In this document: positions 5,644-61,900 of the stretch, one piece after another
Layout of the letters: each line of letters begins with the position of its first letter
How positions within the stretch are numbered: position 1 is the stretch's first letter
Translations under genes and position numbers: made by a program
Notes under the pieces: model-generated
Database searches by the model: none
Told to the model about the DNA's origin: nothing
Seen by the model: only the letters and a program-made list of their open reading frames with translations
Assembly: GCF_035084215.1 (NCBI RefSeq)
Contig: NC_090339.1
Location: 29,822,001 to 29,886,000 of the forward strand
Direction of reading: 5' to 3'
DNA length: 64,000 bases
Source: Heptranchias perlo
Lineage: Eukaryota

Positions 5644-6562
5644 TCATTGCAAATAAGAAGTTAAAGTGGAACTATCCCTAACTTTTTCAATGTTCTCAAC
5701 TGTGTCGATAATAGCTTCTATTTTGTCCTGTTCCAGCACATGTGAAGCATTATTTTTGAATTTGTTGAGCAGTGATTCTCTAGACAGTGGCTTTCTCCAG
5801 TGTCCGTAAAAGGTGTCACATTTTCCACTGAGCACATCTCTGTTCTTCAGGACCAGAACCACCTCTCCGTACATCTTCTCAAAACTGGCCACGTTATCTT
5901 CAGGATGCTGAAGCTCCACTTTGTTGAGTAACTCACTGAGATTATCTCGATGGAGTTTACTTTCACTGAATGATTCAATGCTTACATCTCCATCCAACAG
6001 TGCCGAGCAGGCATTAAACTGGAAGGAATGGCGAGCCTCATGTTCCGTCTCTGGGAATGGCCTGTTGATGTATCGGGAAATGGGGACGCGCAGTATGATT
6101 CTTTCAATCATAGAGGGTGAAAAGACACCCTCATTGGCAGTCACCAGCTGCCTAACTGAGGCAGCAGCGTCTACCACCCAGTGCATGCCCAGATGAGCTG
6201 GGAAGCGCTTAAATGCAATATCTTGGTCCTCTAGCAGAAAACGTGTCTGCTCAAGTGGTGCCAGCTCCTGAGGTTGATAATCACCATAGAAAGCAGCAAA
6301 TCCAAAGCAGCCGGGGGTGTTGTCTAGAATTTTAGCATTTCCCTCCATTCCTTTAGAGGCAAGGAGGGCTGCCTCAAAGCCCAGCCGTGTGGCATTGCCA
6401 ATATGGATGGGTTTTGCCTGAGTAGCTGCATTGGCCATGGGTGCCCCTGAGAGTGAAGCTGCAATAGCCAGGGCATTAATACACTGATTGGGGTTCAGTG
6501 ATAGAAATTTAGCTACGGCTGCAGCGCTGCCCATTGTCCCAACCACACTGGGAGGGTGGAAC
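5644..6562 (-). CDS. ACOD1: ACOD1 last coding exon
   Basis: Lies within ORF 5644..6588. Acceptor tttaacag|G at 6563/6562 completes the Arg codon (PKR|FHPP). Stop at 5644-5646. Confidence 0.95.
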
Positions 6563-9500
6563 CTGTTAAATAAAGAAAATATATTCAAGAATCTGATCCT
6601 TTTACTTGTTTATTACTATTACACAGTAACACTTCAATTCAACAGAATTATCAGTTTTGTTGTGATTAATACTTCTACAAAGTGCTCTTTTACAGGTCAG
6701 ATTCTCTACTAGAGCCTCTAAACGAACTCACTGCCCAGTAATCGGCCATTTACATAAATGCTCTTAAGGAATGGTAATAAAACCTGATACCTTTTTGTGG
6801 GTTGTACCCAGAGGTTAAAATGTTTTCTCTAGATGTTTTATACTGTTTTATTACCCTCTACAACTTTTCATTTACTGATTCATTACACTTTTTATTTTGT
6901 TTATTTTTGCCTACAGTGCAGATAAACTGTGACCCAGCTAAGAATAGTTTTTCACAACCCCCAAATTATAATGTGTTGGACCTTTTCCCATTCACTCCAA
7001 TTGTATAATGTTCTTGTCAAACATAATACTGATTTCTGAGCAATGAAATGAATGAAGTACCAAGGAGTGGCATTGGTGTAAAGATTCAAAAGGGAATTAT
7101 CTAGGTAGAAAAGATATGGAAGTATGTGGTGGGAAAAGATGAGGGGTTAATCTATAAAGAGAGAAGAGGGTAAATTTTGACTTTGTGCAATCGTGTAAAA
7201 CTGGTGATAGTCAATCAGTAGCCTATTTTACATCTCTCCCAATGTTTATTACCATTGACTTCAATGAAAATAAAAATCGGGAGAGATGAAAACCAGGCTG
7301 CCAATCCATTTCACACTATTGCGCACTGAAAATCTGTCTTCTCCTGTCCTAAAAATTCTTATGTTATTATGTTGGTAGATATCAGTAGTTAAGTGTAGGT
7401 TACTGCTTCAAATAATATTAGACAAAACAATAACTTTAATGTAGAATGAGGTCTGACAAAAATCATGTCTATCCTTTCTGTTAATCTGGAGCCAAATGGC
7501 TGCTCCTTTCCCCAACACTAACACTAAAACAATTCTACTCTTTCTGCTGACATTTATCATCGTCGCTGGGTCAAGATCCTGGAACTCCCTTCCTAACAGC
7601 ACAGTGGGAGAACCTTCACCGCATGGGTTGCAGCGGTTCAAGAAGGCGGCTCACCACCACCTTCTCAAGGGCAATTAGGGATGGACAATAAATGCTGGCC
7701 TCGCCAGCGACGCCCACATCCCATGAACGATTAAAAAAACATAAAGCAGTAGCCAAGATCTATATAAAAGGAGGGTAAAGTTGTTCCACGTGCAACAGTA
7801 TTAAAAAGGAGACTCTTTGAACACGTCAAACGACACATTTTGATCTATTCGGCAACAACTTTAGTAATTGCTGCACCGATGTTTGAATTTAGTGCCAGAA
7901 TCTTACCTCTTCGGAATGTTGTTGGCCTCTTGGGAGAAGCGCATTAACCTGCCCTGAATTTCAATGCCCACATTAAAGGCCAGCAGGAAGTCAAGGCCAC
8001 TGGGTTTGGAGTTTGGAGGCAACATCTGGGCAGCAGCTAGAAGGGCAGGCAGCACAGCTCCCGAGGGATGGGTGGCAGGGTGCCAGGTGTCATCGAAATC
8101 CATCGAGTGGACCTGAGGGACAAGAAGGGGCAACACTCAGATTAACTCTATGGAAACAACAAGAAATGGGCAGAAGAGTCCGTTGATATGAGGAGAGTTT
8201 TATCATTAATATTTTTCTGCTACTTGTTTGGTTTGGGAAGCCCAGTTGAAAGACAGTTGGAAGTAGATAGATTGAGTACAAATATCTCACCGCGACTCCA
8301 TTGGCGAAAGCGGCCAGAGTGGGAGAAAGTTTTAATCCATTGCGTCCATACACCGAGCTGACTGGGTCTGGGGCAAACATTTGCTGTTAGAAAAAAGGGG
8401 AACAGGTTAGAAAGGAAGGAACTGGACAGCTTACTTTGAGAAATGGTCTATGCGGAGTCTGTTGGCTGAGACAGTGACTATCACTGGTAGAATACGTGTG
8501 CGAGTGAATATTGCAATCATTGGATTCTGTAGACTGGGGCTGCCAATCCGTGCGCAATTTAGTCTTGTCATTTTGACTTCATGCCCTAGTGTAAAATGGG
8601 CTATAGTGTATCGGCAGCCCATTTTGCAGATTCCACATCACCTGTTTTACACACTCGCACGGTCAAAATTACCCCCTTGGATTTATCCCACAAACTTTGA
8701 GAATCAGCGTGAAACGGTCTCCAAGTTAGATAGTCACTTTTGCATTGATATCACCCAAAACCACAAGCCAGAAATTGTGCTGAGTGGCGTAGCACCTGTC
8801 TCTGCAGCTCCTGCTAATTAAAACAACACATGTATTTTCCGCAGGCTCTGTGGCATTGATTTGCTTGATTTTGAAATTTTGTGAAATTGTGCGCTGTCAA
8901 TTCAAACTCTCAGCAAAGTAAGTTGATTTGCATGGAAATGTCTGTCGGAATGGAAGACACGCCCAGAAAATCTGTCAGGAAGTGATATCACGCCCACAAG
9001 CAGACAAACAGACTTCATTCATTTAAAGTTAGTATTCTGGAAGTCATTGTAAACAAAAATTTTAATTTTTTTTATAAACAGGCAAAGAAATAATTGAATT
9101 AAATTAAAGAGACAGAAGGGAAAAGTAAAAAAAAATACATTTTTTAATTGCTAAAAACTCTTAAAATATGGAGTAATATGAGACTCCACATTTTAAAAAT
9201 TTAATTTTTAGTTATCTGGCAGTCATAAAGAGTTATCGCACTTTTAAAGTTTAATTTAGACCTGGTATCTTCAAGATGGCGTAATTAGTTACGATCCAGC
9301 TGGGCGGATGAGCAAGTTTGAAATGTTTCAGTGATTTCAATGATTGCAACGAGGCGATGGCCCTTTAATTCGCAGCTGTCAAATCGCCTGCCAACCAATA
9401 GGAGCAAGTTCACCTCGCAAATTCGCCTGTGCAAATTCAGGAACTTGCTCCTTCCATTAGCCACTAAAAACGCTGTTGAGCTCCTCCATTACTTCGGGAG

Positions 9501-10920
9501 AAATTTCTGCCCCGTTACATAAAGGCGGGAGTGGCTGTATAAACGCAGCCTAAAATAAATGTATACGATGCAGTGTTGTGTTGAAGCTCTGAGATAGCTG
9601 TTTGTGTGTTTAAAGCGAACTCCTATACTTTCGCTGCATGACGGAAACTGACATATTAATGCAGGAATATCATTGTTACTGATCAATGCAGCAGGAAGTA
9701 TTCGTTCAGCACGGAGTGTTGCGGTGACTATATGTTTGAAATTAGTTCACGTGTACATTACCTGGCAATAATTGAGGCAGATATCAAAAACGTGGCTGGT
9801 GCTGCCCAGGACCCCGACCCCAATGTTATCCAGGATCATGCGTTTACTCCTCTGTAAAACCGTGTCTGAGAGATGATCAGCTTTAACCCCAGAGACAAAT
9901 GAGCCGAAACTGCTTGTCACCGTCTCGTTCAAATCCGGCGCCTCGAAAGCTAACACAGAAAAAATACAGTTGTTGTAAAATTGTGTGTGAGGTGTTCCTT
10001 TGTTAAAATATATTTGGAAGCAGCCAATTTAAACTTAATCAAAAGCAGAATACTGCGGACGCTGGAAATCTGAAATAAAAATAGAAAATGCTGGAGAAGT
10101 TCAGCAAGTCTGAGATTGCTGCCTGACTTGCTGAGCTTCTCCAGCATTTTCTATTTTAATTTAAACTGTTATATTTTCCTCCAGAACGAGTTCTATAAAA
10201 CTGTAACAAAAAACTCTCACTTGGAAATAAAATACATTTCCCCGCCAAAGTGATCATATTTCGGAATTAATAGCTCTCTCATGTTAAAGTTGAAAGGAAA
10301 AGTAACACAAGCCTTTTATTTCTTAGGTTTTGTTACAGACTCCGAGAGATGGACTGAAATAATCAAACCTACAATATCAAACAATCAGCAGCGACTTTAG
10401 TTACTTTATTATCGACCTGCCGCTCTATAACTGTATCTGGAATTTAATTCACAACGAGTACCACTAGTTCTGCTGTTACCACTATTGTTGTATGGTTTGG
10501 ACGGATTTCTGCTCGATTTTTTTCAGTGCATCGTCTTTGAGTTGAAGCGAGCAAAAATACTGAGATTTCACACGGCCCTTCCCACCCTCAGTGTCACATT
10601 TGCACCCTACACCTGACTCCAGAAATGAAGCATACACGCATGGATTATCAGTGAACATTTTATTTTAATTTCGTATCAGATAGAAACCAGGTAGGAGGAT
10701 ATTTACCTTTGCGGGAAATCTTATGGTACAGTCGCTTTCCAACTGTGAAGCAGGACTGGGTTTTCTAAAGAGGAACAGAACGAATCACAGTGTTAGCAAT
10801 TAATCTTGAAAAAATACAATTTTTAAAAAATGTAACTAATAATAAAAAAATACAAATATGGAAAAAGTTAAATTAATTTTTCAAAGCTACATTAATATCT
10901 ACCTGCAGTTTGGAAAACAT
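5644..10920 (-). CDS. ACOD1: Cis-aconitate decarboxylase (IRG1), MmgE/PrpD family; 6 coding exons, ~493 aa
   Basis: Minus-strand exons, all GT-AG and phase-consistent: 10920-10903, 10764-10707, 9949-9762, 8383-8291, 8112-7907, 6562-5644 (1482 nt). The translation contains RSKRMILDNIGVG, AAFANGVAVHSMDFDDTWHPATHPS, PKRFHPPSVVG, QAKPIHIG, AFKRFPAHLGMHW, EARHSFQFNAC and FYGHWRKPL, which are typical of vertebrate ACOD1. Confidence 0.96.
7555..7740 (+). mobile_element. 3' tail of second LINE family (family B) in ACOD1 intron 5
   Basis: SWNSLPNSTVGEPSPHGLQRFKKAAHHHLLKGN* plus gggcaattagggatgg... and an A tail; near-identical to the ends at 16810-17000 and 62150-62339. Confidence 0.9.
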
Positions 10921-20195: not shown

Positions 20196-21664
20196 AAGGG
20201 GTACACAGGGGCAGTTCCATCTTTGCTAGGGCTGCTTTTGAGTTGGTTCACTCTTTCTACTTAGCTGAGGACCAACATTAATTTGCTGTCATTGCTATCA
20301 ACCTAACCCTCCCTTCTGCAGGGAGGTGTTGTGAGACTTGGGAAGGGAATTATTGCACAGACCTGCAAGAGGTGGGTCCAGACTAATATTTTCCCAGTTT
20401 CAGGCAGATGCCATACATCACGTGCTGTGACTAACATATGTTTTACAGATACTTATTGAACATGCTTGTGGTGAGGGTTCACCATAGTGGGTTGGGGGGG
20501 GGCGGTGGGGAAGTTGGAGAGTTAATGACTACACATTTGCTGCTAGCACTTAAAATTATGGTAATCTGTACTTCTCAAATGGACCTAGCATCTCTGGGGA
20601 CAGGCCTAGCAGAGGGTGGGGTGAGTGTGAGGGGACGCTAAGGCTGGCACCCCAGATCACTTTGAAAAATGGTTTTGGAGGTTGGGCTAGAAGATATATA
20701 TAATGCGCCCCTCCAGTCATATCCTCTCCAGCAGTCATCCAACGGTGAGGGGCAGAACAAATGAAGCTTATGTGGGGTATCTCTCTCTCTTATTTAGCCT
20801 TGTATTCTCCTATCTGTTCTATCTTGTTCCTCCCGAGCTTTCGAAACGGCCATGCTACACATTGTTCTTGCTCCGTGAATCCTCACTCATTGTATTGCAG
20901 TCAAGAGCCATACTACAGTCTCTAACTAAATTCATGCTTCCAAGGACCTCAAAAATCGTGGGACTCCTTAATTTTCCTCATGTCGTGTCATTGGCAAACG
21001 TTTAGTATTACCTAACCACTATTTCTTGATTTACTTTCCTAGTCTTCTGTATCTTGTAGGTACCTTGGGTTCTCAATAATACAAATATCATGTATATGTA
21101 TTATGTAGCAATATACTCCCCGCTGATGAAAAAAGTTAGATGAAACATTTTCTATTGTCTTGTAAACAATATTTTAATACGGTTTCTGAACGAATTAAGG
21201 CGGGAAACAAACTGTTGGATTACTCGTGATCCTGACTATAGCAACAGCATCATTCCGCTTTGTTTATGGAATTCACCCTGCCGCAGACTCCACACATTTT
21301 CAAAGTTTAAAATAGCGACTTTCAGATTATTTTAATCCCGTAGAGGAGCAAATATAGCCTTAATTTTAAGATTTTAAAATATGGTATACCCGTGAATAAG
21401 ATTCAAAAACAAATGAAAAATGATAACTCAAAGAATTGCAGTGAAAATATTTTTCCCTTATTCCAATTTTCTGGGCTGCCTTTTTGATGATGTTATTAAT
21501 TCTTGTAATTTGCAACAATCTCGCACATAAAGCATGACGAATAAGGAAGCTGGCTGTAAGAGCTCGTAAGGTGTAAAACATGTTGTCTGTGAAAATACAC
21601 CAGGAGGTGATCACATTATGGAATTCAATCCCTGCTATTTCCTCCTCCTATGCTCAGCTGACAG

Positions 21665-21736
21665 TATAAAGCTGGGAGCCGCGAAGGTTTAAAATAACAG
21701 CGAGGAAGGTGCTCTCCACGGACACTACATGTAAGC
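21665..21736 (+). promoter_or_regulatory. Putative TATA box and short non-coding first exon of the SatP-YrdC gene
   Basis: TATAAA at 21665-21670 is followed by a short CpG-containing stretch ending in a strong donor (CAT|gtaagc at 21731). The ATG exon at 25993 begins with an acceptor, so an upstream exon is needed. Confidence 0.5.
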
Positions 21737-22899
21737 AGCCGTAACATTTCATTGTACAGTGCATTCGATTAGATGATGCTATTTGTTAATATAGAAACAG
21801 CCCAGGGGTCCAAAAATCTAGAGCAAAGGTTATATCGTTTAAAATTAAGATAATTTAATACATTTATAATCATTGGCTTCGATATCCAAATATTTCTCCA
21901 GAGGGGAAGTAAACTGAAATATCGGTCGAACATGGGCGTATGAAGACAGCTAAAATTGGTTAGATACCTTGATTTTAATTGTGCAATATTAACATAATCC
22001 GATTTAATAAATGCGTTTATGATAATATACTCAGATAACTTTTTCGTTCTAAAATATTTGTGGATCAGATCCAATAAGGACTGACGAATGATATTTTAAC
22101 AATTTCAGGGAAAAGATTAAATAAAACAAATTTCATGTTTCTACTAATATATGGGACTAATTTCCGGTTGTAAAACAAGCGTTAACACAGTTCTGAAAGC
22201 AAGTGGAGCAAATCACTTTCAGAGACCATTACTGTCAATCGGTGATGTGGTGCCTGGTACAATGACACTATTTCAAACTAGGTTCTCTGGACTCCCCCGA
22301 TTCCGCAAGAATGAGTCCTAGACATTGTCAGATTTCTGAACTTTTCTGGAAACACTCAGCCGTTCAGGCAGCATCTATCCTAGCCCTCCCTACCTTCTCT
22401 CCACAGATGCTGCCTGACCTGCAGAGCGTTTACAGCATTTTCTGTTTTTATTTCAGATTTCCAGCAGCTGCAGTAATTTTCTGAATTGTTCTGATTTCTT
22501 GATAGCATGTTATTGCTGTTGCAATGTGCTAATAAAACGTTTTATGCAATTATTGCACTGTTTTCCTTTGGTTGCTGGTCTTGTTTTTGGGAAGATAGGG
22601 ATGGGGATCCCCAGCAATATCATGCAGAAAAGTTTAAAAACCTGTGTGGATATTGTACTTTCTTCATTACCCGTAGATGGCGCCACCTTCATAAGGCTAG
22701 ATCCATGGAGACACCTGCAGGATTTCAATTGGTGCTAAATTCACTCTCATTGAACCCTCCAGTTACTGAATCGCCTTTGAAAATTTTAAAAGAGTCATTA
22801 TTTGTGTAATGCAGTGCTGCTTAGATTGATTATGATTAAAATCGAATGTAGAGTACATTGAACTAAATTGTTCCAATTAGTACTAATAGCAGAATATTC

Positions 22900-26003: not shown

Positions 26004-29000
26004 ATGTCTAGCTCGGAAGGTTTTGCTGCTATATTTTATAGCGAGCCAGGAGTTCTAGGGCTCCTGGCCAATGTGATCAGTGCCTTCCTTGTGGCTCTGC
26101 AGAATTTTGCTCAAGCCAATACAAATATTTTGGCTAATGGAACTGAAAACATCTTGGCAGGTGAGTAACAGCATGACAATGTGCTGTAGCTATAGTTAGT
26201 GATCTGCTCAGTGATAAGGACAACAATATAAAATATCATCTTATTTTGCTTAGACAGCAATAGTGACTGAATTTCAATGATATGAAAAGCTTTGAGATGT
26301 TTTGTTGTAATAATATTACTCAGGAAAAATGGTTTAGGATGATAGGATTTCATAACTCTGATATGAAATATTATGTTTTGTAAATAAAACAAACAAAATA
26401 TGAGCAATTATTATTCCATACTTTGTACTAGAAAGCAGATTAATGGGATCTATTAGAGGGAAAATAAAGATGGATTTAAAAAAATGTGTCATTCAAATAT
26501 TCATTTCAGATTGCAAAGGTGCTATGTAACTAAAGGGAAGATTAGTACATCATTTGCAATAAACAATATTCCTAGAACTACAATATCTGTTTTGCTGATC
26601 TAAAAGTGCTTTATAGTACACTCATTAGGGACAAATTTCTGCAGGAGTTCACTCGATTGTAACTTTGGTTGAAGAGCCGCAGAAACCCCTGAAAAATGGA
26701 AGAAATGCTGTTTACGCGTTTTTCTGGAGTTTCTACAGCTTTTCTGCTGAAGTCATGGTGGACGATCAGGAGAACCCCACAGACATTCACCCCCATTAAC
26801 TGTTAGCTCCCCTATAGTTTAGTGGATTACAGAATGTGCTCTAAAGTAACAATGGAAAAGGTCATCTTGATTAATATTCAGGGTATTAACTACCTTCTAT
26901 TTTAGAAGGGTGTCTATATTCAGGCTCTTGACATTGAAAATAGGGATTGGTTTATACGTTACTATACTTTAACATCACTGCAAAGCAGTATACACTTCAC
27001 AATAACACTAAAGTTGTCAGGACCTGATCTGACCCCTGAAATAAGCAATGTGGGACTCTGGAGAAAGCAGTCTCATATCACTCCCGTTTGACATTGAATG
27101 GGATATAATTCCAGTGCAGTGTCAAACTTGCTCCAAAGTTCCTTGGACCTCCTGCACACTTTATAAACTGACCCAAAGCTAACTTTAATGTTTAGAGAGT
27201 ATAAGCACACCCACATGCTCTCCCTAACTATTTATATTCCATGCGGTGTCAAATCCCAGCACTGTGAGACTGTCTCCTCCAATGATTGTCACACTTTTTC
27301 CCTTTGGGGTCAGTCAGGATCTGACTCCAGAGTTAGGCTGCAACTTTAGAGTTGTTACAAAGCAGAAAGCTCTTCTCAACAAAGCTAAAATTGTAGTATT
27401 AACAAATGCTAAGGAGATTTTGAATGAGGGATCCTTTTTTGAAAGGGCCGCTGATCCTGAGACCCCCCTTTTAAGTTATGCATTTAAACCTTACTTAAAG
27501 TTTATGGCGCTCATGAAGACCATATATTTGAATACCCAGTATAAGAAGTTTTTTGAAGGAACCTATGCTATTAAAGAATTTCCATTGTGTGTTTTCTAGG
27601 TGTTCACCTTATATTGATTGGTGGAGTGACACAACTTGTTGCTGGGCTAATGGCGTTCAGAAAGTACGACCATCTTGGTGGCACAGCCTTTATAGCTTTC
27701 TCAGCTTTGTGGAGCAGCTTTGGGGCAACTCGAATTATTCTGGGAGCAAACTCCCCTCTTAATGCCAGCTCCATCACTCTGTATCCAAAAAACACCAGTG
27801 TTGTAAATAATATTACAAGCACGGCTCTGCCTCCTATTAATGAGTCTGCTGTTGCAGGGCTAGTAGCTTACATCAGTGTAGCATTTATTTTGTCCTTCTG
27901 TTCAGCTACCACTAATTACATCATGCCCTTTGTGTTTGGGGCCATAACACTTACACTCGTTTTTGAGGCTGTAGGTCTCTTTAGCCAATGGGCTTTAATA
28001 GTATCTGGAATCTTTGAACTAGTGATAGTTATCTTTGGGCTTTATGGAGCCACTGCCCTGCTTTTAAAGGGAGTCACCCAGAGATACATCCTTCCTGGGT
28101 TTGGCAATGCATTATTCAATGTACTGCTTCTAGGAACAACTAACAAATCATCTTCTAAGAGCATTGGTGAAGAGAAGAAGAAGAACACCAAATATGCTGA
28201 GCCTATGGCCCTTGGCAACTTGTGCAGTGTGATTTCTCCCTTCATCTTTGCTTTTTACTGCTTTGGGTACATGAAATCCTTTTATGTGGGAGCTGTGTGG
28301 GTCAGCATCAATTCTATTGCACAACTTTTTGCCAGCTATTACGGTTACTTGCGCAATGATGTCTACTTTGCCACTAAATTTGGTGTCCATAGTATGTATT
28401 GGCTTGTGAAGTCCTGGGAAGAGTTCATTTTGACTGTCCTCATAAATGTTGATATTTTAGATAGCAGCAGAGCAAGGATGACAGGTGACTGGTTTTTCTT
28501 GGTCACAGCTTTGATTTTATGTCTGATGTCACTGAATAGAGACAAACTTGAAATAATCCATAATGGCTTTTTTGTTCTTCTCACCATCTCCACCATTCCT
28601 CAGATCAACAGTGTACCATATTACAGATTTTTTGGGGCAGTTTGCTCTATGTACACAGCCCTATCCCTTTATGTAACATTTGCCAGCCTAATCAACTCCA
28701 TAGCAGAAAAGGCATTGATTCCTATTGGAACCCAACTCCTCTCTTCAAAAACATTTCAGAATGTTCTATTTGCCCTGAAAAAAAAGTTCACCACAGCTGA
28801 AGAGCTTCCATCCTTTACTACTGTGCAGCTTCCAGATGCCCTCTTCTACATCTGCAATGGACTGGCAGCCCTGTCTGCCATCCAGAGTGCAAATTTAGAC
28901 CAGGTCCAAATTCATGTCACTATTCCCTGGGTGCTGATTCCTGGAGCTCTCATCCAACTTTATGTGTCCAGGATTCAAGTCCGAGGAGGAAGGCGCTTTG

Positions 29001-32000
29001 GCTCTGTGTTAACCTTCTGCTATGCAGCTTTATGGGCGACTTGGACCTGGCTTCGATTTGCAGGTATATTTATCAATGCAATATTACCATGAACAAACAA
29101 TCGCTAAAGATGATTTATATGTGTATGAACAACAAATGAAAATATTTTCGTATCTCACTTTGTAACTGGGATTTTAGTGTATATGTAATTTTTATTGATT
29201 TTCTGTATTTTCTAAAAATTATATTTCTTTAATCTGCACATTTTTAAATTAAAACAATTCAGATTATTCTTTATTACTAGGAGTGTCCCCAGTCAATCTC
29301 CCTAATGCAAAAATGGCCATTTTTACAAAAATAATCCTGTATTATTAAAATAATAGATGGTCAAGGGAATGAGCTATAGGCATGTATGCACTCCCCATTC
29401 ACTTGGGGCTTAAATTTACACTTGTGATTATACCAACCTCACAGTCACAGATTTGTCTATTATTTATTTCGACACGTCATAGTTCCAGTTTATAAAAAAA
29501 ACTCACACAACAGAAACAATGGAATACCATACGGCTATAAAATATGTTACTGTATGCTATTCAGATTAGCAAAACAGATTTTATTTTTCTCAGTTCTGAT
29601 ATAATAAGATAACACATTAAGGATACATAGACAACACCTAAGATCATGTCACTATTCCCTGTGTGCTGATCTCTGACTTTATGTGTTCAGGATTCAAGTA
29701 CAAGAAGGAAGGTGCTTTGGTATTGTACTATTATTCTGCTACACAGCTATCTGAATGAGCACTACTTTCTTTATCCTGCTAATGACTGTGAGTAATGTTA
29801 TGAATGCTTAACAACTTATACATTATGTTTCTCTTCACTACTTTAACAGAGGCATCAACTCATGTTAACATGGGTTAACACCTCTGCTAAAATAACAAAG
29901 AAAGGAAGTTATTATATGTGTATTAAAATTTCACACAAAAGCATCTCTCACAGTAAGTTCCAAGCTTATATCAATTCTCAGTGATACACATAGACCTGAA
30001 ATTTCCTTAAGAGCTTTCCTTGCCACCATATCTTCACTGGCAATTCCCAGCCATAATTTCCTGTTTCAAGTTAGTCTTTGTATTGTCAATAGTATTATCT
30101 GCTTATATTCATAACTGTGTGTAATGAGTTTCATAAATATGTATTTCTTCTGCAGGTCATTTGTTAAATATTGATCCCAGTTCTGATGGTGGATTCACTG
30201 TGGGTGCCATAGCTTTCCTTATAGTCAACATGTTTCTTATTATCTTAGGTGAGTGTTTTAGTTGCAATTTCTGCTCAGTTTGTGTACTTCAATACCTGCC
30301 GTCCAGGGGGAATTCATTTCTTGTGTGGTCTCTCTCACAGCCACTTATATTAATATAGTGCTGCTCACAGTCACAGTCATCATGGAAGTGATAATCATCT
30401 GTTTTCTACTCTTCACCCTTGAGAGACTACCTCTTCCTTTGGAAGGTCAGTCACTAGCTCAATTTATTTTTAATTTTTAAAAAATGTCTATTTTATCGGC
30501 ACGTGAACACTAAGGACTATTTCCCCCTACTGTTAACCCCACAGGTGTGATGCTGGCTTTGTTCAGTCTTTTCTGTGTTTATGGAGCAGTTGCCTCTTTT
30601 GCCAACCATATGTTTGGGAAACAACTAATTCCTCTGGGTGACCCTCTCTTCAAGGTAAATGCTTAATGGTATCTATTTACTTCTAATATTAATTGTTTTC
30701 CAATGTATTGCACACTGGGAGTCAAGGCTAAGTTTAGTCTTCAGGTGAAGTGGGATTACAGGGCTGAGGATAATTGGACAAGGGCGTGGAGATTCAGTCC
30801 CTATCTTAAAGTCATACATCTGTTCTTATTTTTATATATTTCAATTTTATATTATTATTTGTATTTAATTAACAAAACTTACTACAGTTTGGGAAGCAAA
30901 AAAGTGAAGTTGGTTGGAGCATAGGAGGTTCTATGCAGTACAAGCTAAGGAACTGGGAGACACAGTGCCACCACTGGCAGGAGGGCATGATTACAGTGTG
31001 ACAAGTTTACACAGGCAGTTTCCATTATAAATGTGGCCAATGAAACTTAGAATGAAACAAGCTGACAGGATGTGTACACAGTAGTAGGTACAGCACAGGA
31101 GGAAGCCATTCGGCCCATCATGCCTGTGCCAGCTCTTTGAAAGAGCTATCCAATTAGTCCCACTCCCCTGCTCTTTCCCCATAGTCCTGTAAATATTTTT
31201 CCTTCAATTATTTATCCAATTCTCTTTCGAAAGTTACTATTGAATCTGCTTCCACCATCCTTTCAGGCAGTGCATTAATAATATAAATGTGCAGGAATTT
31301 TGTAAGAAGCAAAATATTCTCTTCCTTTAATGTGGTAAGCTGACATACTTTGTTTCCCAGTAAAATTTGCTGGTCTACCATCATTAATTTGTTTTGAAAA
31401 AAAAATGTCTTTTGTAATGTGAGGTCTAACAGTGAAAGAATGCCAACATTATGCATTATTTTACATATAGGTTTTGACAGAATCCATTACACTTCAGAAG
31501 TCACACTTCAATATGTCAACAATATTTCATGCTGATTTTTTCCTTACCTAGAACTGGAAATTTTGCAAGCATCTACAACTTTGCAAACTTCCATCATCAA
31601 ACAGCAATTAAACACTGATTGAACTATTTACTTAGAGTAGCTAACTGTTGTGACCTTGAATGGGGGGCACTTAAACACAGCTCTATTCTATCAGCAGAGT
31701 AATACATTGTGTATTGCATGGTATAATGCTCCTGTCATTATGGAACAGCCTATCATCTGAGTTTCTGTGAGCAACACCACAAGAAACCCACTAGTTAAGG
31801 ATTAAACTACCTAGGATCATGATCATGGATTTAACATTCTTGATAGTTTATAAACTGCTAAAACGTACTGTTTATGGTTTGGGATGTCATCCAAACTCCC
31901 ACAGCTTTCTAATGCTCCATCAATTTTCTGCTATTTTTTGTTATTTACAAATGTCTTGCCCATTCATTAAAGAAAGGATGGTGTACAAAAGTTGTGCTCA

Positions 32001-33876
32001 TTTATGTAATTGCAAACAATATTTAAGCCTGTTTCATGAACAGAAAAAACTATATAAAACATTCTGACTATAATCTACATTGTCCTGTAACATACCTTTT
32101 ATTTGGCTTCTGAAGACTGCAATCTAGACCTTCTGTGTCGATTAATTTTGGAAAAACCTAAAGGATATTTTCATTATGATACGTTTATCAAAAACAAAAT
32201 ATTTTTCTGAAATGCCTTATACTTTTTTTTCATAAATCACAGCCAGGAAAAAACAAAAAGAAAGACCAAACCTCTTCGTCTTGTCACATTGCTTCTTCAC
32301 GTCAGACTAGCAGTCTACAAACTATTGCAAAGATCTTGGATTCTGGCCGTGTGTGTGGGATCCCAACTGATACTGTGTATGCTCTGGCAGCTTCCTGTAA
32401 GCAGCCACAGGCTGTTGAAAGTATCTACAACATAAAGGTAAGGATGCTAAAATCAGTGAGACAAAAATATGCTCAGACTGGATTCTTACAGCTTTTTATT
32501 CTTACCCAGTAAAATCATTAGCCACAAAGTGCTTTTCTCAGTCTTTTAACGCATGATTGCTGTGTTTGCTTTTCCAGGAGCGTCCTGCAGAGAAGCCTAT
32601 CTGTATATGTATTTCCAATCTGGACCAGCTTTCTGCTGTGCATCCTCCATTCAGCCCCTTGCTCTGGGAGTTCATGAACCATGTCTACCCTGGAGGGATC
32701 AGCTGTATTGTGAAGAAAGGAGAATGGCTAAAGAAACTAGGTATGTATTGTGATTGGTAGATCATTTTGAAGCAGGTGGTGGTCCCTATTCAAACAGCCA
32801 GTTACATCAGTTAATCAGTGTTAATCAGAGTGAGATTAGATTCTAAGAAAGTTCTGAAAATCAGATTGTATCCTTTATTAAAGGTGTTGGCGCTGCCTAT
32901 GATCGTGTTGGTACAAAGGACAGTATCATGATCCGTGTTCCTGACCACACTGTGACAGCCCATCTTGTGAATATGACTGGGCCACTCGCCATTACGTCAG
33001 CGAACCCGAGCGGAGAGCCTGATAGCACCCACCATGACATGGTTATCTCGTATGTATTTAAATATTACAATTGAATTAATTGTTGTTTTACCTTATAGTA
33101 CATGCATTTTTCATTGTAAGTGTTATCGTGTTTATCGACAGGCGTCTTGCACACAAGATTGATGGTGTTCTATGTGATGGAAACTCTAATGAATTGGTTG
33201 CTTCCACTGTTATCAACTGTACTAAGATTGATGAAGGTACTACAGCATTCTGTTCAAATATATTAATTATATACTCTTTTGGTTACTGATTAAACAGATT
33301 TTATCCAATAACTTTTACATTGTTTTAGCCCCTAAGGTGAGCCCCTATGTGTGAGTTTCTTTAAATTATATATTAGTTTTAATATGCTAACATAATCATA
33401 GTTGAGGTAGGAGAAGGAGTTGCAGTTGGACTGGCAGCACACATAGCAGTCTCATTCAGTGCTGAGTAATTTTCTGACATAGCATTTGTTACATTGATGA
33501 ATGTACTATTAACACTTGGGCAGATCAGCCCAATGCAACTCATGTTGACACCTGTGAGGTTCATAGAGGACGTACAATTGTAAACTGATTTTTCCAATAA
33601 CTTTGGCATTGGCGTAGCCCCCAAGGTTTACATATGAATGAGTTTTTTAAAAATAAGATGCTAGTATTAAAATTACTTTTTTCAATGATTCACTGCTTTT
33701 AATGCTTTCTAAAGACCACTTCAGCAGTAATTGTAATGGTCTTCAGCTGTGATTAATATTTTTCTAATAAAAATGATTTACTTTCTACAGAAGGAATCAC
33801 CATTATTAGAGAAGGCTGTGTCCCAGCAGTGAGGGTCATGCAGCTTTTTGAACGAGTGAAGAACAAACTTGACTGA
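26004..33876 (+). CDS. Uncharacterised polytopic membrane protein: 3x GPR1/FUN34/YaaH (SatP/AceTr)-like repeats plus C-terminal YrdC/Sua5 domain; 10 coding exons, ~877 aa
   Basis: Coding exons, GT-AG and phase-consistent, 2634 nt with no stops: 26004-26160, 27600-29063, 30156-30248, 30341-30445, 30545-30654, 32243-32437, 32578-32740, 32884-33049, 33142-33236, 33791-33876. SatP-like motifs: SEPGVLGL, GGVTQLVAGLMAFRKYDHLGGTAFIAFSALW, NHMFGKQLIPLG. YrdC motifs: GIPTDTVYAL, KERPAEKP, IRVPDH, TSANPSG, ASTVI, IIREG. Confidence 0.9.
27600..29063 (+). CDS. Large 1464-bp exon encoding most of the membrane region of the SatP-YrdC protein
   Basis: Lies within the strongly hydrophobic 501-aa ORF 27587..29092. 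Acceptor ttttctag|GT at 27599/27600; donor GCAG|gtatat at 29063. Confidence 0.92.
31085..31275 (-). mobile_element. CR1 3' end fragment (intronic)
   Basis: NALPERMVEADSIVTFERELDK plus CR1 3' UTR. Confidence 0.85.
32243..33876 (+). CDS. YrdC/Sua5 (TsaC-like) domain exons of the fusion protein
   Basis: Five exons translate to ...ILDSGRVCGIPTDTVYALAAS...IYNIKERPAEKPICIC...VYPGGISCIV...DSIMIRVPDH...GPLAITSANPSGEP...IDGVLCDG...ASTVINCT...ITIIREGCVP...stop. Confidence 0.9.
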
Positions 33877-35209
33877 TGGCAAACCTCAACTGACAGAAAC
33901 TTTCAAATCTGACATGTATTGAGGATACACAGATCAATTACATATAGTCACAATGCAAACAATAAGTCTGTTATACATGTGGATAATTTCCCATTACAAT
34001 TGACACATGTGGCAGTCGGTGTAATGCAGTGATATATAGTGGTTTCCTTTCACTACAGAGAATATGGGAGACTATGATTTGCTGCACTTTTGGAGCACTT
34101 TATTTTGCGGGGATGCAAAGACCTACGTTGTAACCATTGAATTCATTAATTGAAGATCTGAAACTGCATTTTCAATTGTTAAATACACCTCTAGTAAACA
34201 TCTGGGTGACACCTGCATGACAAACCTTTGTCATCTGTGAAGTCTGGTGCTACCCATACTGCAGTCATATTACATTGAAAATCAAAAATTGTCTATGCAG
34301 AATTCATTGCATATGTCTATCTGAACAAAATCATCTTAGGTTACCTTGTAACAACGAATTTCAGTGCGGGGATATGAAGATGAATAACGAGTTATTTATT
34401 GGTATCATATTTGTTGAAACAATAACCTGCACCGCCCCACCGCCCCACCACCCACCACCCCCCCCCCCCACCACCCTCCCGACCAGCTGTAAACTACAAT
34501 CTACCTCTGAGACATTAGTCTTCCTGCCCAGTTATAATCCCGGTGGCAATGCCGTCTTTTCTACTAATCCCGGTCTCAATAGGAAGATTGTCCTTTCTAT
34601 CATTTTGATGATAAAATTATACTTGTTGCCAACACTAAGTTTAATGGTAAGACAATACTTTAATAATACAAATGGCAGACATAAAAAGAAAAACTACATA
34701 TTCTGGAAATTTGAAATAAAAACAGAAAACACAGCAGGTCAATCAGTATCTGAAAGTGAAAAGAAGGTTAACATTTCAGGTAGAATCCTTGATCAGAACT
34801 GACTTGTTTTTATTTCTCTAGTAGATCTAAATTAGCATACTGTTGTAATGTGTCCAGGAAACACTTTGCGGACACTTAATCAGTTAATAACATTCAAATA
34901 ATAGAAAAAAAGTTTAGAAAAACACTAAATAGGAAATACAGTCAGGTCACTGTAATTATAGCCTAGAAACAACTGTGAATTATTTTACACTATATTCATG
35001 TCATTATTTTGGTAGTTTAACAGAGGCAATAATCTGCTTATTTCAAATAGGTTAAAATTTCCTTTAAAAGAGCAGACAATTTAATGCCATACACACACAT
35101 TATGCAAATAGATCACAATAATTTCCAGACTTATTTATGTTATGCAACTAGTCTGCTACTACAGATACATTCTGATTGTAATGTTTTGTTGTCTGGATGT
35201 TATTGTAAC

Positions 35210-50475: not shown

Positions 50476-53400
50476 ACATCAGGGGTTAAATTGGATAAGG
50501 CCACAAACTGTGATCCGCGACTAACTCGCGCCCGGTGCTTGTTGCACAGGCAGAACATGAACTTCCTGCTGCCTGCTAATTTGAATGATTCCTCCGTGCA
50601 GCTTCTCAGCTGCGCCCGTAGCACTGGCTGCAGGGAGGAACCAGGAAGCCCAAAATGTGGCGTGGCCAGCGCTCGTCACTGGTGGCCTGCACCTCTTAAA
50701 GGTGCAGGTGCACATTTTAAAGGGCAAGGACACAGTCTACTGGGAGGAGGGAAAGATGGCAGGAAGGATCAAGGGACCCGATACGAGAGCACGCCCCGCG
50801 CTTCTCAGGTGATGCATTGGAGGCCCCGGTGGAGTGGGTGGACGAAAGAAGGGCCAACCTGTACCCGCAGGGTGGCAGGAGACCCTCCAGACACCAGCTT
50901 CACAGGCAGTCGGAGGCTGTGGCCCAGGAAGTCAACGCCAGGAGCATAGCACCATGCGCATGGCTGCAGTGCCAAAAGAAGTTCAATGATTTGACACGAG
51001 TGGTCAATGTGAGTGAATGCAAGTGTCAAGTGGCACATCTTACCAACTGCAGCACTTCTCCACGCATGACACCCCCCCGTCACCCACTCACCAATAAACA
51101 CTGCCCATCCATATGCAATGCTGCATCTCACCCTCACATAGTACCACACTTGCGACCACTACTGACGGGTGACACACACCGGCAGCTCTTCAACCATGAC
51201 AGGCATATCACCCAGGATACTCACTGACACACTTCCCTCTGTCTTGCAGGAGAAGGTGATGCATAACAGCCAGCAGCAGGAGAGACCTGAGGGAGGACGG
51301 GCCACGCCTACATGTCCTCACCCCCATGAAGGAGACCATGCTTCAGATCATTGGGCGGACCGTCGCTGCAGCCGTGACCACATATCGTGCTGGAGGTCTC
51401 GATGAAAGGAGAGTCTCTGCATATCTAATGCTTCTTCTCATTTCCTTCATCTCTCTCCTCCCACAATCTTTTCTGACTCATGTGGTCCACAAGCTGTCAG
51501 TACGCACATCTTACTTGCTCCTCTCCCCACTCCACAACTCAACCTATTTCCTTTTGTCATTGCAGATACCCAAGAACCGTCTGAGGAAGAGGAGGATGAC
51601 TACGTTGATCTAACACTCGCATCCACCAGCTCAGAGACTGACACAGTGCGTCCTTTAGAGGCTGGGTTAGAGGGGGGATCTGCAAGTGATGAGACACCAG
51701 GCACGAGTGCGCAGGAGCCAGGGCGGGGTGGGGAGGGGGGGGTCGGATACCACAGGTGCCAGTTCACTGGAGGGCGAGGTCGCTCACAAGCTCTGCTGCA
51801 GAAGGGTCAGGTGAGGACTTCGATGGGCCAGGCTACAGAAGAAGGCAGATGGGCGTACACCACTAAATGCTTGGTGCACTGGAAAGCCTGTCAGAAAGCC
51901 TGCGCACAATGACAAGGGAATGGAGGAGTCCAGCTCGAACTTGGCAAAGGGTTTTGCACAGAGCTTGGAGCCCATCCTTTCTCACATGGAACGGGCGGTC
52001 ACCGTCATCAGTACACCTATGGAACACACTATGATGCAGTGCCTGATGGCTGATGTCGCGCCTTCCACTGCAACACAAACAGCTGCCATTGCAGCATAAG
52101 GTGATGTGATGAAAGGTCTGAAAGCTACGGTTGAAGCTCAGACTTCTGCAATGGAAGCACAGGCTGCGACTATCATGGCTCCGGGTACCACTGTGGAACG
52201 GGGTTCCCAGGGCGTCACAGCACTCCAACAATCCGTTCTCCAGCTGATCACCAGGATTGCTGAGGCATCGCCCCGGACGACTGCGTTCCTGCTCCTACCC
52301 CTGCCGCTCCACCAGTGCCCTTGCTGTTGCCTATTAGCCAGCCGGGCCAGACTGCTGCAGCCAATGCCGAGATGGTGCAGTCCGAAGCCAGGACCTCCCG
52401 GCCCAGAGCTGCTCGAGGTCATCCTCCAAGGCCATCTCTATGCTCCTCAATTGAAGGCCAAAAGCCTTCAAACACCTATGCTACAGCCAGTTGGGATGCA
52501 CCTCATTAGGAGCACTAGGATAGAGAAAGACACACGAACAACAGGCACTAAGGGAATGCACAAGGGTGAATAGTCTCCTTTTGTTTGCATTATTTAATTT
52601 GTTAATTGATAAATGTGACTTTGAATTTGCATTTGGTGGTGGTTTTTATTTCAGCGATGAGCTGAGGGAGAAAGCAATGTGTAATCAGATGGAGGCAATT
52701 TGATGGTCATGTGGGAGCGGACAGGTGGGGAGCGTAGGACCGTTGGTGACTTGGGAGATGTCGTTCACATTATTGATGCCGTGCATGGATCAGGCGAGCA
52801 CAGAGAGCCTTGCAGACAGGGCGTGCGTTCCTTGTTGCCCCCTTGCATCTTCCTCCACTTACTCCTCCAGGTCCTCCCCCGCCTCCTCCTTAGCCTCTTC
52901 CTCTGACTCAGGGTCTTGCCGAATTATTAGTGGCAAGGCTGATCCCTCATAATGGCGAGATTGTGCAGCATGCAGCATAGCACCACAAATCTTCCCATTT
53001 GCTCAGCGAAGTAGTGCAGGGCTCCTCCAGAATGGTCCAGGCAGCAGAAGCGTTGCTTTAGGGGGCCTATGGTGTGCTCCACGATGTTGTGTGTGGCAGC
53101 ATGGCTCTCATTGTGGGCCTGCTTTGCACGCAGGCGTGCATGTTGCACTGGAGTCATGAGCCACCGCATGAGGGGATAGCCCTTGTCACCCAGTAGCCAG
53201 CCTTTGATATGCCGAGCCAGTGAAAGATAGCTGGCACGTTGGATCGTCGCATAACGAAGGCATCGTAACTGCTCCCAGGGTAGCAGGGATCAACCTCCAT
53301 GATTCGATACATGTGGTCGCACACCAGCTGCATGTTCAGGGAGTGTAACGCCTTTAAGTTCATGAAGATGGCCGAGTTGATAAGTGGAGCACGCAAGGCA

Positions 53401-54234
53401 ACATGCGTGCAGTCAATGGCACCCTTAACCATGGGGAAGCCTGCAATGCGAGCAAACCCTCGTGCTCCCTCGTTCAGCTTGTCTCTATCAAGAGGGTAAC
53501 GTGATGAGCCTGTTCCACATATCGTATAGTGCGTCATTGACCTCCTTTATGCAGCAGTGCACTGCAAACTGCGAGATGTTGCACAGATCGCAAGCAGAGG
53601 CCTGAAAGGATCCAGAGCCGTAGAAGTTCAGTGCTGCGATTACCTTCACAGCGACAGGCAATGCTGTCCTTGCCCTGCTCTGAGGCTGTAGTTGTGGCCG
53701 CAGCAGTTGACAGGTCTCCATCACGACCTCCTTGGTGAACCTCAGCCGTCGGATGCACTGATCCTCACTCATGTTGAGGTAAAATAATTGGTCCCTGAAG
53801 GTCCTAATGGGGATATGGCCTCCTGCTCAATGCCCTGCGCCTCCTCCCTCTCCTCGCAGCTTGACCTGCTCTGCGTGGCCTCTCTGCATGTTCCCTGTCA
53901 TGTTCAATGCCCAGTGGAGGCCCCATCCAGTGACATAACCATGATGCTACCCTGCAATCGCATGGTTACCAAGAATCTTGTTTAATTACTGTTGTAACTT
54001 TTCCAACCTTAAGGCAGTACCTGCCAAACCACTCTCAAATGGAATTCTCAGTAAGTATAGGGAGCTTCAAAAAACACTTCCTGTTCGACCAGAAGCAATA
54101 ATCCAGCAACTAACCTGTAACACCTGCATGATCCCTTTAAATAGCGCTGGGGGGGTTGTCCAGGCACTCTAAGACATGTTCAGGTGTGTGTGGTTAAGGC
54201 AGTGCATTGAGTGGAGTGTTAAGTTCCAAATTGG

Positions 54235-58999: not shown

Positions 59000-61900
59000 T
59001 GGTTAGCGGGTTTGTGATGGGGTGGTCCTAATGGCTGTCAATGTGAAACCACCACGAAATGGTCGCTATTTCCACCCAGAACCTTCATTGGCCATGCAGG
59101 GCCGTTTGGAGATCAAGAACTGCATTCGTTGGTTTAACAAGGGAGGGAGGAAAATAGATGGTCTTCTCTCCCTCCATTGGAAAAACTGGCTTACAACCAG
59201 TGCCAGAGAGGACCACCACAATGGAAGATCTGAAGTCTACAGGAAAAGGAATTTGTCTAACCTCTGGGCAGACAGACAAGAGAGCCTGTGGAGAGGGTGA
59301 GGTTGGAGGTGAACTGGCAGCTGAAGGTTGAAGAAGGCAGGGCAAAGCTCATTAATATTCCTCTCAGCTTCATGTGCCTTCTAAAAGAATTGCTATGCCC
59401 TCACACTCAGCAACAAGTTCTGTCAGTGCAGCTAAACAAGCTTCTTTGACTTTCACTTCACAGGGGTGCCTTGCAGAAAGAGGCTAGCCACTCTGACCAC
59501 ACTTTCTGTGAAACAGCCACCAACACTCTCAGATCAGCAATTCCAGTCACTTAATCACCAACCACATCATGGCATCTTACCCGTGAAAGCACCAGCACAG
59601 AGACACTCACAAGGGATTACTTAGTGAGTCAGAAGGTTGATGCTGGATGAAGCCCTGCGCACTGGAGAGAATGATGACTGCACTTGGCTGAGGAGCTGGG
59701 GGACTCAAGTTCCAAGGGCCCAGTCTTCAAAAGATTAATGATAAGGGAGCTTATATCTCATGTGGAGGCAGTGCAGATGGTTTCCATGCATATGGTTAAG
59801 AAGATGGATCAGTGGGAGGAATCCACTACCTGCATCTGCAATTTATTGCAGAAAGTATTTCATGACCTGCAGAACACTGGAAACTGACAGCACAGAAGAT
59901 TGCTGCAGCATCAAGACTCCAGGAAGAGATTCTGAAAATATTGTTGGCTCCTGGAGTGGCAGCCACCACTGCTTCTATAGGTGCCTTTAACAGGACAATG
60001 TCGCAGGGCTTGGAAGAGCTGATTGGGACTATTTGACCTGTGATGATACTGACCAGTAGGACCTCCTGAGTCTTCTGCCCCGCATCAGTGGGCTACAAGG
60101 TGTGGGCGCAGATGTTGCTGTCTCTCTGGACAGTGGCAGTTAGCCTGCTTCCTTAAGGCCCCCTCTAATACCTTCACATAAGGGAACTCCAGACACGAGG
60201 CCGGCATCCCTTGCCATTCCAAGAGAAAAGCTGCCGGAAGCTGGTCGCCTCTTGGATAGCAACTACCCTGAGACGATAGTCATCTCATGCGTTTAAGGCT
60301 GCAGGGGGAACTTGAGCACATAGAATTGTGAGTTCATTTCTATGTATGGTTTCAACTTTTGGGAGTTGGCTGATGACAAGGGAAATACAGATTGCTGTCT
60401 TAGGAAGGATGTTGGCAGAAGTTTTGGAAAGTAAGTGATTTTGTGAGGGTGTTGCGGGACGACAAGCAGGTGTGAAGTGACTTTATTTTGGTGAGTCAAC
60501 CTTTATTTTTTCAAAGCACTGGACTATCAGTTATGCTGGCCTTGCTCTGGCAGCTGGCTGTCGGCTCTCCAGTTCCACTTCTTTTTCGTCCTGTGCAGCC
60601 TTCTCGTGCTGTGGGGTGGCAGGTGCGTCCTCCCTCTCATCATTACATTCACGTTTTGGAAGCAGCAAGCTTTTTTTCTTTGCAATATTATGAAGCGCAC
60701 AATATACTACAATGAATCTGGAGGCCCTGGCCGGGCTGTACTTCTGTGCTGTATCAGATTTATCCAGGCACCTAAAACAAGACCACAGAATGCCTTTAGT
60801 TAGCTCTGTGACACTTTTGGTTGCATGGGCCTTATATTTCTTCTCCCTATCTGTTTGAGGAAGCCTCAATGGAATCATCAGCCATGAGTGGGTAGACTAG
60901 CTGAGGTCGCCGATTAACCATCCTGATACATGGTCTTGACATCATAGAAACATATGAAAATGAAGGATAGAAAAAGACCAACTGATCCAGCAAGCTTGTT
61001 CTATATTGTCATCATACAACTTCTGCACACCTTGACTCCCATCCACCCATCAGGGCTAGAATGGTGGATTGTCACATGTCATGGCAGCTCCCTGGGTATC
61101 TGTCTTTCACGTATAGGATCAGGTAGTTAGCATCACACACTAGTTTCACATTAATGGAATGGAAGCTATTTCTGCTCATAAAATCGAGGGGATGGGGTTC
61201 ATACGGGGCTTTGAGTGGCACATGACTTCCATCAATTGCAACCTGGGAAGCCAGCCAGCCTATATGACTGGATAGCTCTCTCTTTGCTTCTCTGGTTCCA
61301 GTCGGGAGGAAATGAATTGTGCAGTTCAGCACATTGCTCAGACATTGCTGCAGGAGTTCCTCAGGGCAGTGTCCTAGGCCCAACCATCTTCAGCTGCTTC
61401 AGCAATGATCTTCCCTCCATCATAAGGTCAGAAATGGGGATGTTCGCTGATGTTTGAAGTGTTCAGTTCCATTCGCAACCCATTAGATAATGAAGCAGTC
61501 CGAGCCCGCGTGCACCAAGACCTGGACAACATCCAGGCTTGGGCTGATAAGTGGTAAGTAACATTTGCGCCAGACAAGTGCCAGGCAGTGACCATCCCCA
61601 ACAAGAGAGAGTGTAACCATCTCCCCTTGACATTCAACGGCATTACTATCACCGAATCCCCCACCATCAACATCTTGGGGGTCACCATTGACCAGAAACT
61701 TAACTGGGCCAGCCACATAAATACTGTGGCTATAAGAGCAGGTCAGAGGCTGGGTATTCTGCGGTGGGTGACTCACCTCCTGACTCCCCAAAGCCTTTCC
61801 ACCATCCACAAGGTACATGTCAGGAGTGTGATGGAATACTCTCCACTTGCCTGGTTAAGTGCAGCTCCAAGAACACTCAAGAAGCTCAACACCATCCAGG

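Follow-up and report, generated by a model that had tools for sequence, protein, structure and literature searches.

The gene described here joins a membrane channel of the small-acid type (AceTr/SatP) to an intact YrdC domain, and this fusion is real, expressed and ancient. The fusion architecture itself is already published and is not new. Ghasemi et al. 2026 (PMC13316224) described in silico an Ato-Sua5 family of about 900 aa and unknown function, which the sections of that article available to us present as three Gpr1/Fun34/YaaH domains with a C-terminal Sua5/YciO/YrdC domain, divided into two vertebrate clades and hypothesized to form a dimer of trimers. With three AceTr repeats and a C-terminal PF01300 domain in 877 aa, the shark gene is a member of this family. 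In the same sections, the string "itacon" is unmatched, and analyses of synteny, expression, active site or pore of the vertebrate proteins were not found. In the accessible part of their preprint, Szeligowski et al. (bioRxiv 10.1101/2022.06.17.496652) reported a "YrdC" gene syntenic with IRG1L back to oysters and no obvious functional clustering in the synteny block; there, the gene is labelled only "YrdC" and the word "transporter" is unmatched, whereas here it is a channel fusion. What appears to be new is that the Ato-Sua5 fusion is the "YrdC" gene of the IRG1L synteny block. No paper uniting the two was found in our literature searches, in which few subscription journals were covered.

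Gene model, transcripts and the YrdC domain

The window, that is, the whole stretch of 64,000 nucleotides that was analysed, corresponds to G000:C15:29822001-29886000 in a 3.2-Gb genome. The fusion gene occupies positions 26004-33876 of its forward strand, with 10 exons, a single open frame for the 877 aa and GT-AG boundaries in 9/9 introns.

21665-21731, forward strand: putative TATA box and an inferred short first exon that is non-coding
26004-26160, forward strand: exon 1, with the ATG and the start of AceTr repeat 1, including the degenerate NPAPLGL motif EPGVLGL
27600-29063, forward strand: exon 2, remainder of AceTr repeat 1, whole repeat 2 and first half of repeat 3
30156-30248, forward strand: exon 3, repeat 3
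30341-30445, forward strand: exon 4, repeat 3
30545-30654, forward strand: exon 5, last helix of repeat 3 and donor of the fusion splice
32243-32437, forward strand: exon 6, variable linker, then start of the YrdC domain (PTDTVY, K708)
32578-32740, forward strand: exon 7, YrdC domain (R710, K714, C719)
32884-33049, forward strand: exon 8, YrdC domain (R780, T800, S801, N803)
33142-33236, forward strand: exon 9, YrdC domain (S839)
33791-33876, forward strand: exon 10, end of the YrdC domain (R856) and stop

The 3' UTR runs on beyond position 34300. The interval 32243-33876, to which the initial annotation had been attached, is exactly exons 6 to 10, and the in-frame joining of the YrdC domain after the third membrane repeat, which it had proposed, is seen in transcripts: contigs from 4/4 runs, representing at most 2 samples from 2 studies, carry the junction 30654^32243 (GT..AG, 1588 nt skipped). 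In run X1 all nine introns of the gene are joined, and one 3231-nt contig spans exons 1 to 10, its listed pieces showing 2 mismatches. Because the introns are cleanly skipped, we consider the contigs to be spliced transcripts, RNA as the library type of these runs being itself only a guess. A separate gene made of the YrdC exons is ruled out by spliced contigs spanning both parts.

The transcript contigs of the fusion gene carry 24-44 additional 5' bases, and positions 21278-22183 recur at 89% conservation in the duplicated unit described below. No NF-kB sites were found upstream of the fusion gene; a single site upstream of IRG1L (n=1) was dropped as evidence, since 502/2000 shuffles reach the same. 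Intron 2 (window 29700-29750) holds a short, repeat-masked and degenerate duplicate of the tail of exon 2.

Pfam locates PF01300 in exons 6, 7 and 8, and the domain is present in 119/120 listed long homologues (proteins of at least 854 aa; 120 of 201 matches listed), with chance excluded. All five motifs previously read in the domain are in place (PTDTVY 684-689, KER 708-710, IRVP 779-782, TSAN 800-803 and ST 839-840), and mapping on Sua5 from P. abyssi identifies the KxR/SxN tetrad as K708, R710, S801 and N803. In the orthologues of the A paralogue, to which the shark gene belongs, T687, K708, R710, R780, T800, S801, N803 and S839 are invariant (119/119), and R856 is kept in 116/119; the count leaves out P0042, a chimeric model lacking the YrdC domain. 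Four of the threonine-binding residues of P. abyssi Sua5 (T35, H67, R121, S181, R195) are identical in A, H67 being replaced by a Cys that likewise occurs in the canonical YRDC of the present genome. The TsaC signature Thr138 corresponds to T800, and the chain stops after the domain, with the SUA5 domain absent. Compared to the TIGR00057 cut-off of 123.2, two A orthologues score 123.5 and 133.3, and B, the second paralogue, scores 112.2. Moreover, columns conserved at 97% or above in 111 orthologues number 103/208 in the YrdC part versus 86/225, 48/183 and 37/184 in the repeats, which makes the YrdC part, by alignment, the best-conserved region of the fusion protein. The conservation of the catalytic residues in A spans about 450 million years or more. 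Being complete, it favours an enzyme over a sensor for the A paralogue, as a predicted activity.

The fused domain has in common with the threonylcarbamoyl-AMP (TC-AMP) synthases TsaC, YRDC and Sua5 the tetrad, the threonine residues and the TsaC signature Thr; different from them, it forms a separate clade, is fused to a membrane part, is induced by infection and occurs alongside a canonical YRDC. The YrdC fold is likewise reused outside tRNA modification in TobZ and HypF, which produce a carbamoyl-adenylate for another acceptor. The substrate of these enzymes is carbamoyl phosphate and their fusion partner a Kae1-like transferase, whereas in the fusion protein the partner of YrdC is a channel.

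The view that the domain is a paralogue separate from the housekeeping enzyme is upheld. The exons of canonical YRDC are found at another PF01300 locus (contig C29, 12.04 Mb), and identity between this YRDC and the fused domain is 31% across 144 aa. A quick tree (63 rows) groups the fused domains in a clade of 25 rows (SH-aLRT 100) that leaves outside canonical YRDC and every prokaryotic row, the tree having taken in 35 of 64 prokaryotic loci and canonical YRDC being a long branch whose own placement is unsure. The C29 locus also rules out the fusion as the only canonical YRDC of the species. A prokaryotic donor or operon was rejected as well: the 64 loci are only 23-34% identical, and cluster partners are absent, a pattern-limited search having found 0/64 with AceTr, PrpD, VOC, PhyH or ElbB neighbours.

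Membrane repeats, paralogues and distribution

The three AceTr repeats extend at about residues 8-232, 246-432 and 458-642. PF01184 is found by Pfam in exon 2 at E 2e-5 and 24.7 bits, slightly below the cut-off of 25, and the comparison of repeats 1/2/3 with single-domain AceTr proteins gave hhalign probabilities of 89/97/93. With an AlphaFold model of exon 2 only (pLDDT 84.6) as query, the top 6 Foldseek matches are all SatP structures at probability 1.0, with TM scores on the target of 0.70-0.81, yet E values of 0.007-0.014. The predicted model, within the limits of exon 2, presents the six-helix SatP fold per repeat. The NPAPLGL signature is degenerate in the repeats (EPGVLGL, EPMALGN, LPDALFY), and similar variants occur in the single-domain matches P0272 and P0273.

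The gate residues were located by sequence register, with the Phe and Tyr positions mapped, and in this register the hydrophobic FLY constriction of AceTr/SatP is not kept in the fusion protein. In particular, the gate Phe position is occupied by N23 (111/111), D262 (100/111; Ser in the present genome) and N472 (111/111), the gate Tyr position is F or Y in repeat 1, H in repeat 2 and Y in repeat 3, and H316 is unchanged in 111/111 orthologues. Judging from these residues, the pores are under selection, probably not for acetate; since the canonical hydrophobic gate is lost, transport by the fusion protein is only putative. With SatP/Ady2 channels, the protein shares the fold, and stretches resembling the NPAPLGL and SYGxxW motifs in degenerate form occur in every repeat; it differs from them in having three repeats per chain, Asn/Asp/Asn at the gate Phe and His at the gate Tyr of repeat 2.

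Among the matches listed, the closest homologues belong to sharks (86-90% identity), and full-length fusions occur in sharks, rays, chimaera, bony fish, lungfish, amphibians, reptiles, birds and platypus (120 of 201 matches listed), as well as in echidna. Distant full-length relatives were sought with the membrane part as query (41 matches), and beyond vertebrates full-length fusions are found in amphioxus, scallop, oyster and environmental sequences. No therian sequence is among the matches listed; for the absence we rely chiefly on Ghasemi et al. 2026 (PMC13316224), in whose available sections the fusion is reported as absent from mammals. Their "except mammals" is too broad, because platypus and echidna have full-length copies. 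Including monotremes, the range of the fusion matches that of pIRG1/IRG1L as given in the accessible part of bioRxiv 10.1101/2022.06.17.496652.

Several further models were observed. The environmental ENA/Logan sequences P0271, P0276, P0190 and P0215 have the membrane-plus-YrdC architecture and branch outside animal A and B; P0271 and P0190 keep KxR, but with the Trp of B. Environmental fusion sequences may indicate a pre-animal origin. The gastropod models P0121, P0122 and P0129, real or artefactual, lack a membrane part and carry YrdC domains of the fused clade in tandem, and P0160 (axolotl) and P0220 (Physella) are divergent additional copies in which the residues around KxR or SxN are changed. 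For the fusion gene, short models with YrdC alone also exist in several databases; many of these start inside repeat 3 and look partial.

The A paralogue is named si:ch211-153b23.3 in zebrafish (hereafter 153b23.3, and so for its neighbours). B is a second full-length paralogue (zebrafish si:ch211-153b23.4) whose locus tags adjoin those of A in several teleosts; in the present genome it is found 270 kb downstream of A (G000:C15:30123697-30130700, L037-L044). The tetrad Arg of B is absent in 120/120 ray-finned fish sequences (Q 106, H 11, K 1, E 1, A 1) and likewise in shark B, which features K-x-Q instead of K-x-R. The position of K714 is Arg in 120/120, that of C719 is Trp in 119, and the threonine ligands are kept. 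From these replacements we infer that B is non-catalytic; an Arg four residues further might compensate. Lacking the tetrad Arg, B fits the idea of a sensor, which the initial annotation had entertained, better than A does.

The IRG1L neighbourhood and its response to infection

The ACOD1 neighbour of the fusion gene is identified as IRG1L. The two genes are arranged head-to-head, with 15,084 bp from ATG to ATG, and the basic N-terminal extension of IRG1L (7 K/R and no D/E within 27 aa) is presequence-like. As for other genes at window 1000-26000, a scan of 150 ORFs yielded MmgE/PrpD exons, with nothing further but two weak matches at chance level. The pair belongs to a cluster of about 430 kb (C15 29.70-30.13 Mb; 544 kb of sequence scanned), in which a decarboxylase, an oxygenase, a VOC enzyme and a transporter-type gene are physically clustered.

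Window 5644-10920, reverse strand: IRG1L/ACOD1-like gene, intact, 6 exons, 493 aa
C15 29.70 Mb: IRG1L copy
C15 29.72 Mb: truncated Ato-YrdC copy; exon 2 has three frameshifting indels, exons 3 and 6 are unmatched
C15 29.745-29.752 Mb: GLOD5-type VOC gene, three exons
C15 29.76 Mb: PhyH dioxygenase, with HQD and distal His
C15 between the first and second PhyH (in the window): the intact IRG1L given above and Ato-YrdC A
C15 29.89-29.92 Mb: second PhyH and broken VOC copy
C15 30.10-30.11 Mb, reverse strand: ElbB/GATD3-like gene
C15 30.12-30.13 Mb: Ato-YrdC B, head-to-head with the ElbB/GATD3-like gene

These genes were found by ORF scoring; genome-wide searches for the Glyoxalase, 2OG-FeII_Oxy, GATase and PhyH families missed them because their exons are short. 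No Kae1-like carbamoyl-acceptor enzyme was found in the cluster by this ORF-based, incomplete gene finding. Further PhyH genes are located on C27 and C34 and a further homologue of the ElbB-like gene (62%) on C6, and the VOC exon matched just the two cluster copies. The first exon of the ElbB/GATD3-like gene apparently misses the mitochondrial presequence. Searches for the PhyH substrate gave weak matches only (MysH at E 0.001, a chlorinating-enzyme model far under its cut-off, and PhyH clusters of an atlas at 0.91); by the HQD motif rule, the presence of HQD makes a halogenase unlikely.

The block of IRG1L, Ato-YrdC, VOC and PhyH is duplicated in tandem (G000:C15:29.69-29.92 Mb) with an offset of 129-168 kb. 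The last exons of the duplicated IRG1L differ at 4/914 bases, the flanks are about 92% identical, and the second Ato copy and one VOC copy are broken. An endogenous retrovirus with gag/pol/env-like ORFs (G000:C15:29.779-29.786 Mb, L010-L011) is inserted inside the duplicated block, and near-perfect tandem repeats of 6-16 kb (>99%), possibly a recent duplication or an assembly artefact, occur at G000:C15:30.036-30.077 and 30.138-30.157 Mb. Harbinger/DDE-type transposase remnants lie on the reverse strand at window 52930-53830 and 60500-61400, and fragments that are presumably LINE and Penelope-like, as we name these families, occupy most of the remaining window.

Microbial itaconate clusters offer a comparison. 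In fungi and Pseudomonas, the VOC-type enzyme is a 2-hydroxyparaconate lactonase (de Witt 2023, PMC9875883, in the part available). As in the shark cluster, an itaconate-related enzyme is accompanied by a small ring-cleaving-dioxygenase-like (VOC) protein in the Ustilago cluster (Cyp3, Rdo1) and in Pseudomonas PA0878-0886. The oxygenase making 2-hydroxyparaconate in Ustilago is a P450 and not a PhyH, the type present in the shark cluster, and the shark cluster has both a YrdC and an AceTr gene, neither of which is described for the microbial clusters in the accessible part of PMC9875883. By analogy, the lactonase precedent suggests roles for the shark PhyH and VOC proteins. We take PA0880/Rdo1 to be kin to GLOD5/STM3117, the VOC type of the shark. 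Human GLOD5 (3zw5) is retained despite the absence of IRG1L; thus, the VOC gene was not co-lost.

In the available part of a table from Shigella-infected zebrafish (PMC6980646), the log2 fold change is 6.04 for 153b23.3, 5.81 for irg1l, 5.68 for zgc:174917 (PhyH-domain-like by description), 4.05 for 153b23.4 and 3.08 for 153b23.5, all at padj <1e-12, and acod1 rises significantly by 3.79. No significant rise is reported for glod5 (0.65, padj 0.50) or 153b23.7 (1.5, padj 0.20); yrdc (0.27), osgep (-0.31) and osgepl1 (-0.65) are flat at padj 1.0, and gatd3a (-0.36) is flat too. For the putative co-expression of the cluster, judged in zebrafish only, five genes are strongly up and glod5 and 153b23.7 are not; of the five, zgc:174917 and 153b23.5 are candidate orthologues only of the shark PhyH and ElbB-like genes. 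Furthermore, in the accessible parts of two other studies, irg1l, 153b23.3 and 153b23.5 are hub genes in one module (PMC11140123) and are tabulated with similar patterns (PMC8877790). Given that the orthologue of the fusion rises by 6.0 log2 and yrdc, osgep and osgepl1 do not respond, the YrdC domain is probably not for t6A. The link with ACOD1, which the initial annotation had offered as speculative, turns out stronger than stated in view of the head-to-head arrangement, the synteny to oysters, the co-induction and the matching taxonomic range; its other half, a hand-over of CO2, is unlikely.

Possible functions of the fusion protein

The reading we tentatively prefer, and regard as somewhat short of probable, is that the fusion acts as a carbamoyl-adenylating enzyme, membrane-bound and equipped with a pore of its own, in an itaconate-linked defence-metabolite module and not in t6A synthesis. 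Upon infection, the cluster would be switched on and IRG1L would make itaconate, and the fused YrdC domain would use ATP and bicarbonate to form an N-carbamoyl-amino-acid adenylate, most likely TC-AMP. Without co-induced Kae1/OSGEP, TC-AMP would pass to a small-molecule acceptor or cyclise at the pore mouth, and the polar-lined AceTr repeats would let substrate in or product out. The SatP six-domain ring might be rebuilt by a pair of protomers, either A-A, as in the published hypothesis, or A-B with a non-catalytic B; binding between A and B is hypothetical. The module would thereby make or handle an itaconate-linked defence metabolite instead of modifying tRNA. TC-AMP has a half-life of 3.5 min and decays to threonine and an oxazolidinone (PMC7913687, in the part available), and this short life, the lack of induction of the tRNA acceptor enzymes and the YrdC folds serving other acceptors in TobZ and HypF support the reading. 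The catalytic conservation of A, the co-induction with irg1l, the clustering in the genome, the taxonomic range and the VOC-type lactonase of microbial itaconate clusters speak for it too. Counted against it are the failure of an incomplete gene finding to reveal a Kae1-like enzyme in the cluster, the glod5 and 153b23.7 genes without significant induction, the lost gate, the missing prokaryotic precedent (0/64 loci), the short YrdC-only models, the preprint's lack of functional clustering and the retention of GLOD5 in humans.

More doubtfully, IRG1L, the two Ato-YrdC fusions, PhyH, the GLOD5-type VOC gene and the ElbB-like gene may jointly constitute an infection-induced animal biosynthetic gene cluster. 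Such a cluster would be common to molluscs, amphioxus and egg-laying vertebrates, and would yield an antimicrobial or signalling product from itaconate and a carbamoyl-adenylated amino acid, exported via an A/B enzyme-channel heterodimer; therian mammals would have lost the pathway and retained itaconate alone.

Less likely again is a ligand-gated itaconate/dicarboxylate channel, whose pore would export the itaconate of IRG1L or a derivative and whose YrdC domain would be a gating sensor of ATP, bicarbonate or an amino acid. Such a channel would agree with the acetate and succinate carried by SatP relatives (according to structure titles), with the shift in specificity caused by gate changes in yeast Ato1, with the passage of the gate Phe to N23/D262/N472 beside an invariant H316, with the threonine-binding residues that B keeps without the tetrad Arg and with the co-induction with irg1l. 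However, every catalytic residue is kept in A, beyond what binding alone should require.

That IRG1 is reported, in sources available in part, to have this set of domains next to it from oysters up to vertebrates, that the IRG1L-Ato pair is duplicated as a unit in the present genome and that detoxification leaves the YrdC domain without a role all speak against a co-regulated stress-tolerance neighbourhood, in which a common inflammatory enhancer would serve cell protection (glyoxalase-type enzymes, acid efflux) with no single pathway. We consider it unlikely, although glyoxalases occur among the VOC and ElbB/DJ-1 families, functional clustering was not seen in the accessible part of the preprint (bioRxiv 10.1101/2022.06.17.496652) and glod5 is not co-induced.

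A membrane-tethered, inducible additional supply of TC-AMP for t6A, with the pore feeding in substrate, is improbable: canonical YRDC is intact elsewhere in the genome, osgep and osgepl1 are uninduced in zebrafish, and the fusion is reported absent from mammals, which need t6A. In its favour are the presence of all t6A-enzyme residues, the passing of the TIGR00057 cut-off and the suggestion, in the available sections of Ghasemi et al. (PMC13316224), that import is coupled to a Sua5-like reaction. Finally, a direct recycling of CO2 from IRG1L by the YrdC domain is most improbable: IRG1L does decarboxylate cis-aconitate and YrdC does use bicarbonate/CO2, but zebrafish IRG1L is in the mitochondrial matrix, the presequence-like N terminus of shark IRG1L makes direct hand-over to a cytosolic YrdC domain unlikely, and bicarbonate is abundant in cells.

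The fusion alone is a known orphan, and the tie to IRG1L supplies a testable context: its identification as the YrdC gene of the IRG1L cluster, the co-induction and the agreement in range, together with the polar pore and the asymmetry between A and B, make its function directly testable, and the active-site asymmetry of A and B provides ready point mutants to part catalysis from gating. If the reading as an enzyme with its own pore is true, one of the most strongly infection-induced genes of zebrafish would be an ATP-using enzyme coupled to a pore beside itaconate synthesis. Should the cluster prove to be a pathway, it would represent a rare animal biosynthetic cluster, put the universal t6A enzyme to use beyond tRNA, and form an arm of itaconate immunity that fish, amphibians, poultry and shellfish possess and humans lack. 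The place of the fusion in an ancient infection-induced cluster with the itaconate-making enzyme suggests an undiscovered animal defence-metabolite pathway.
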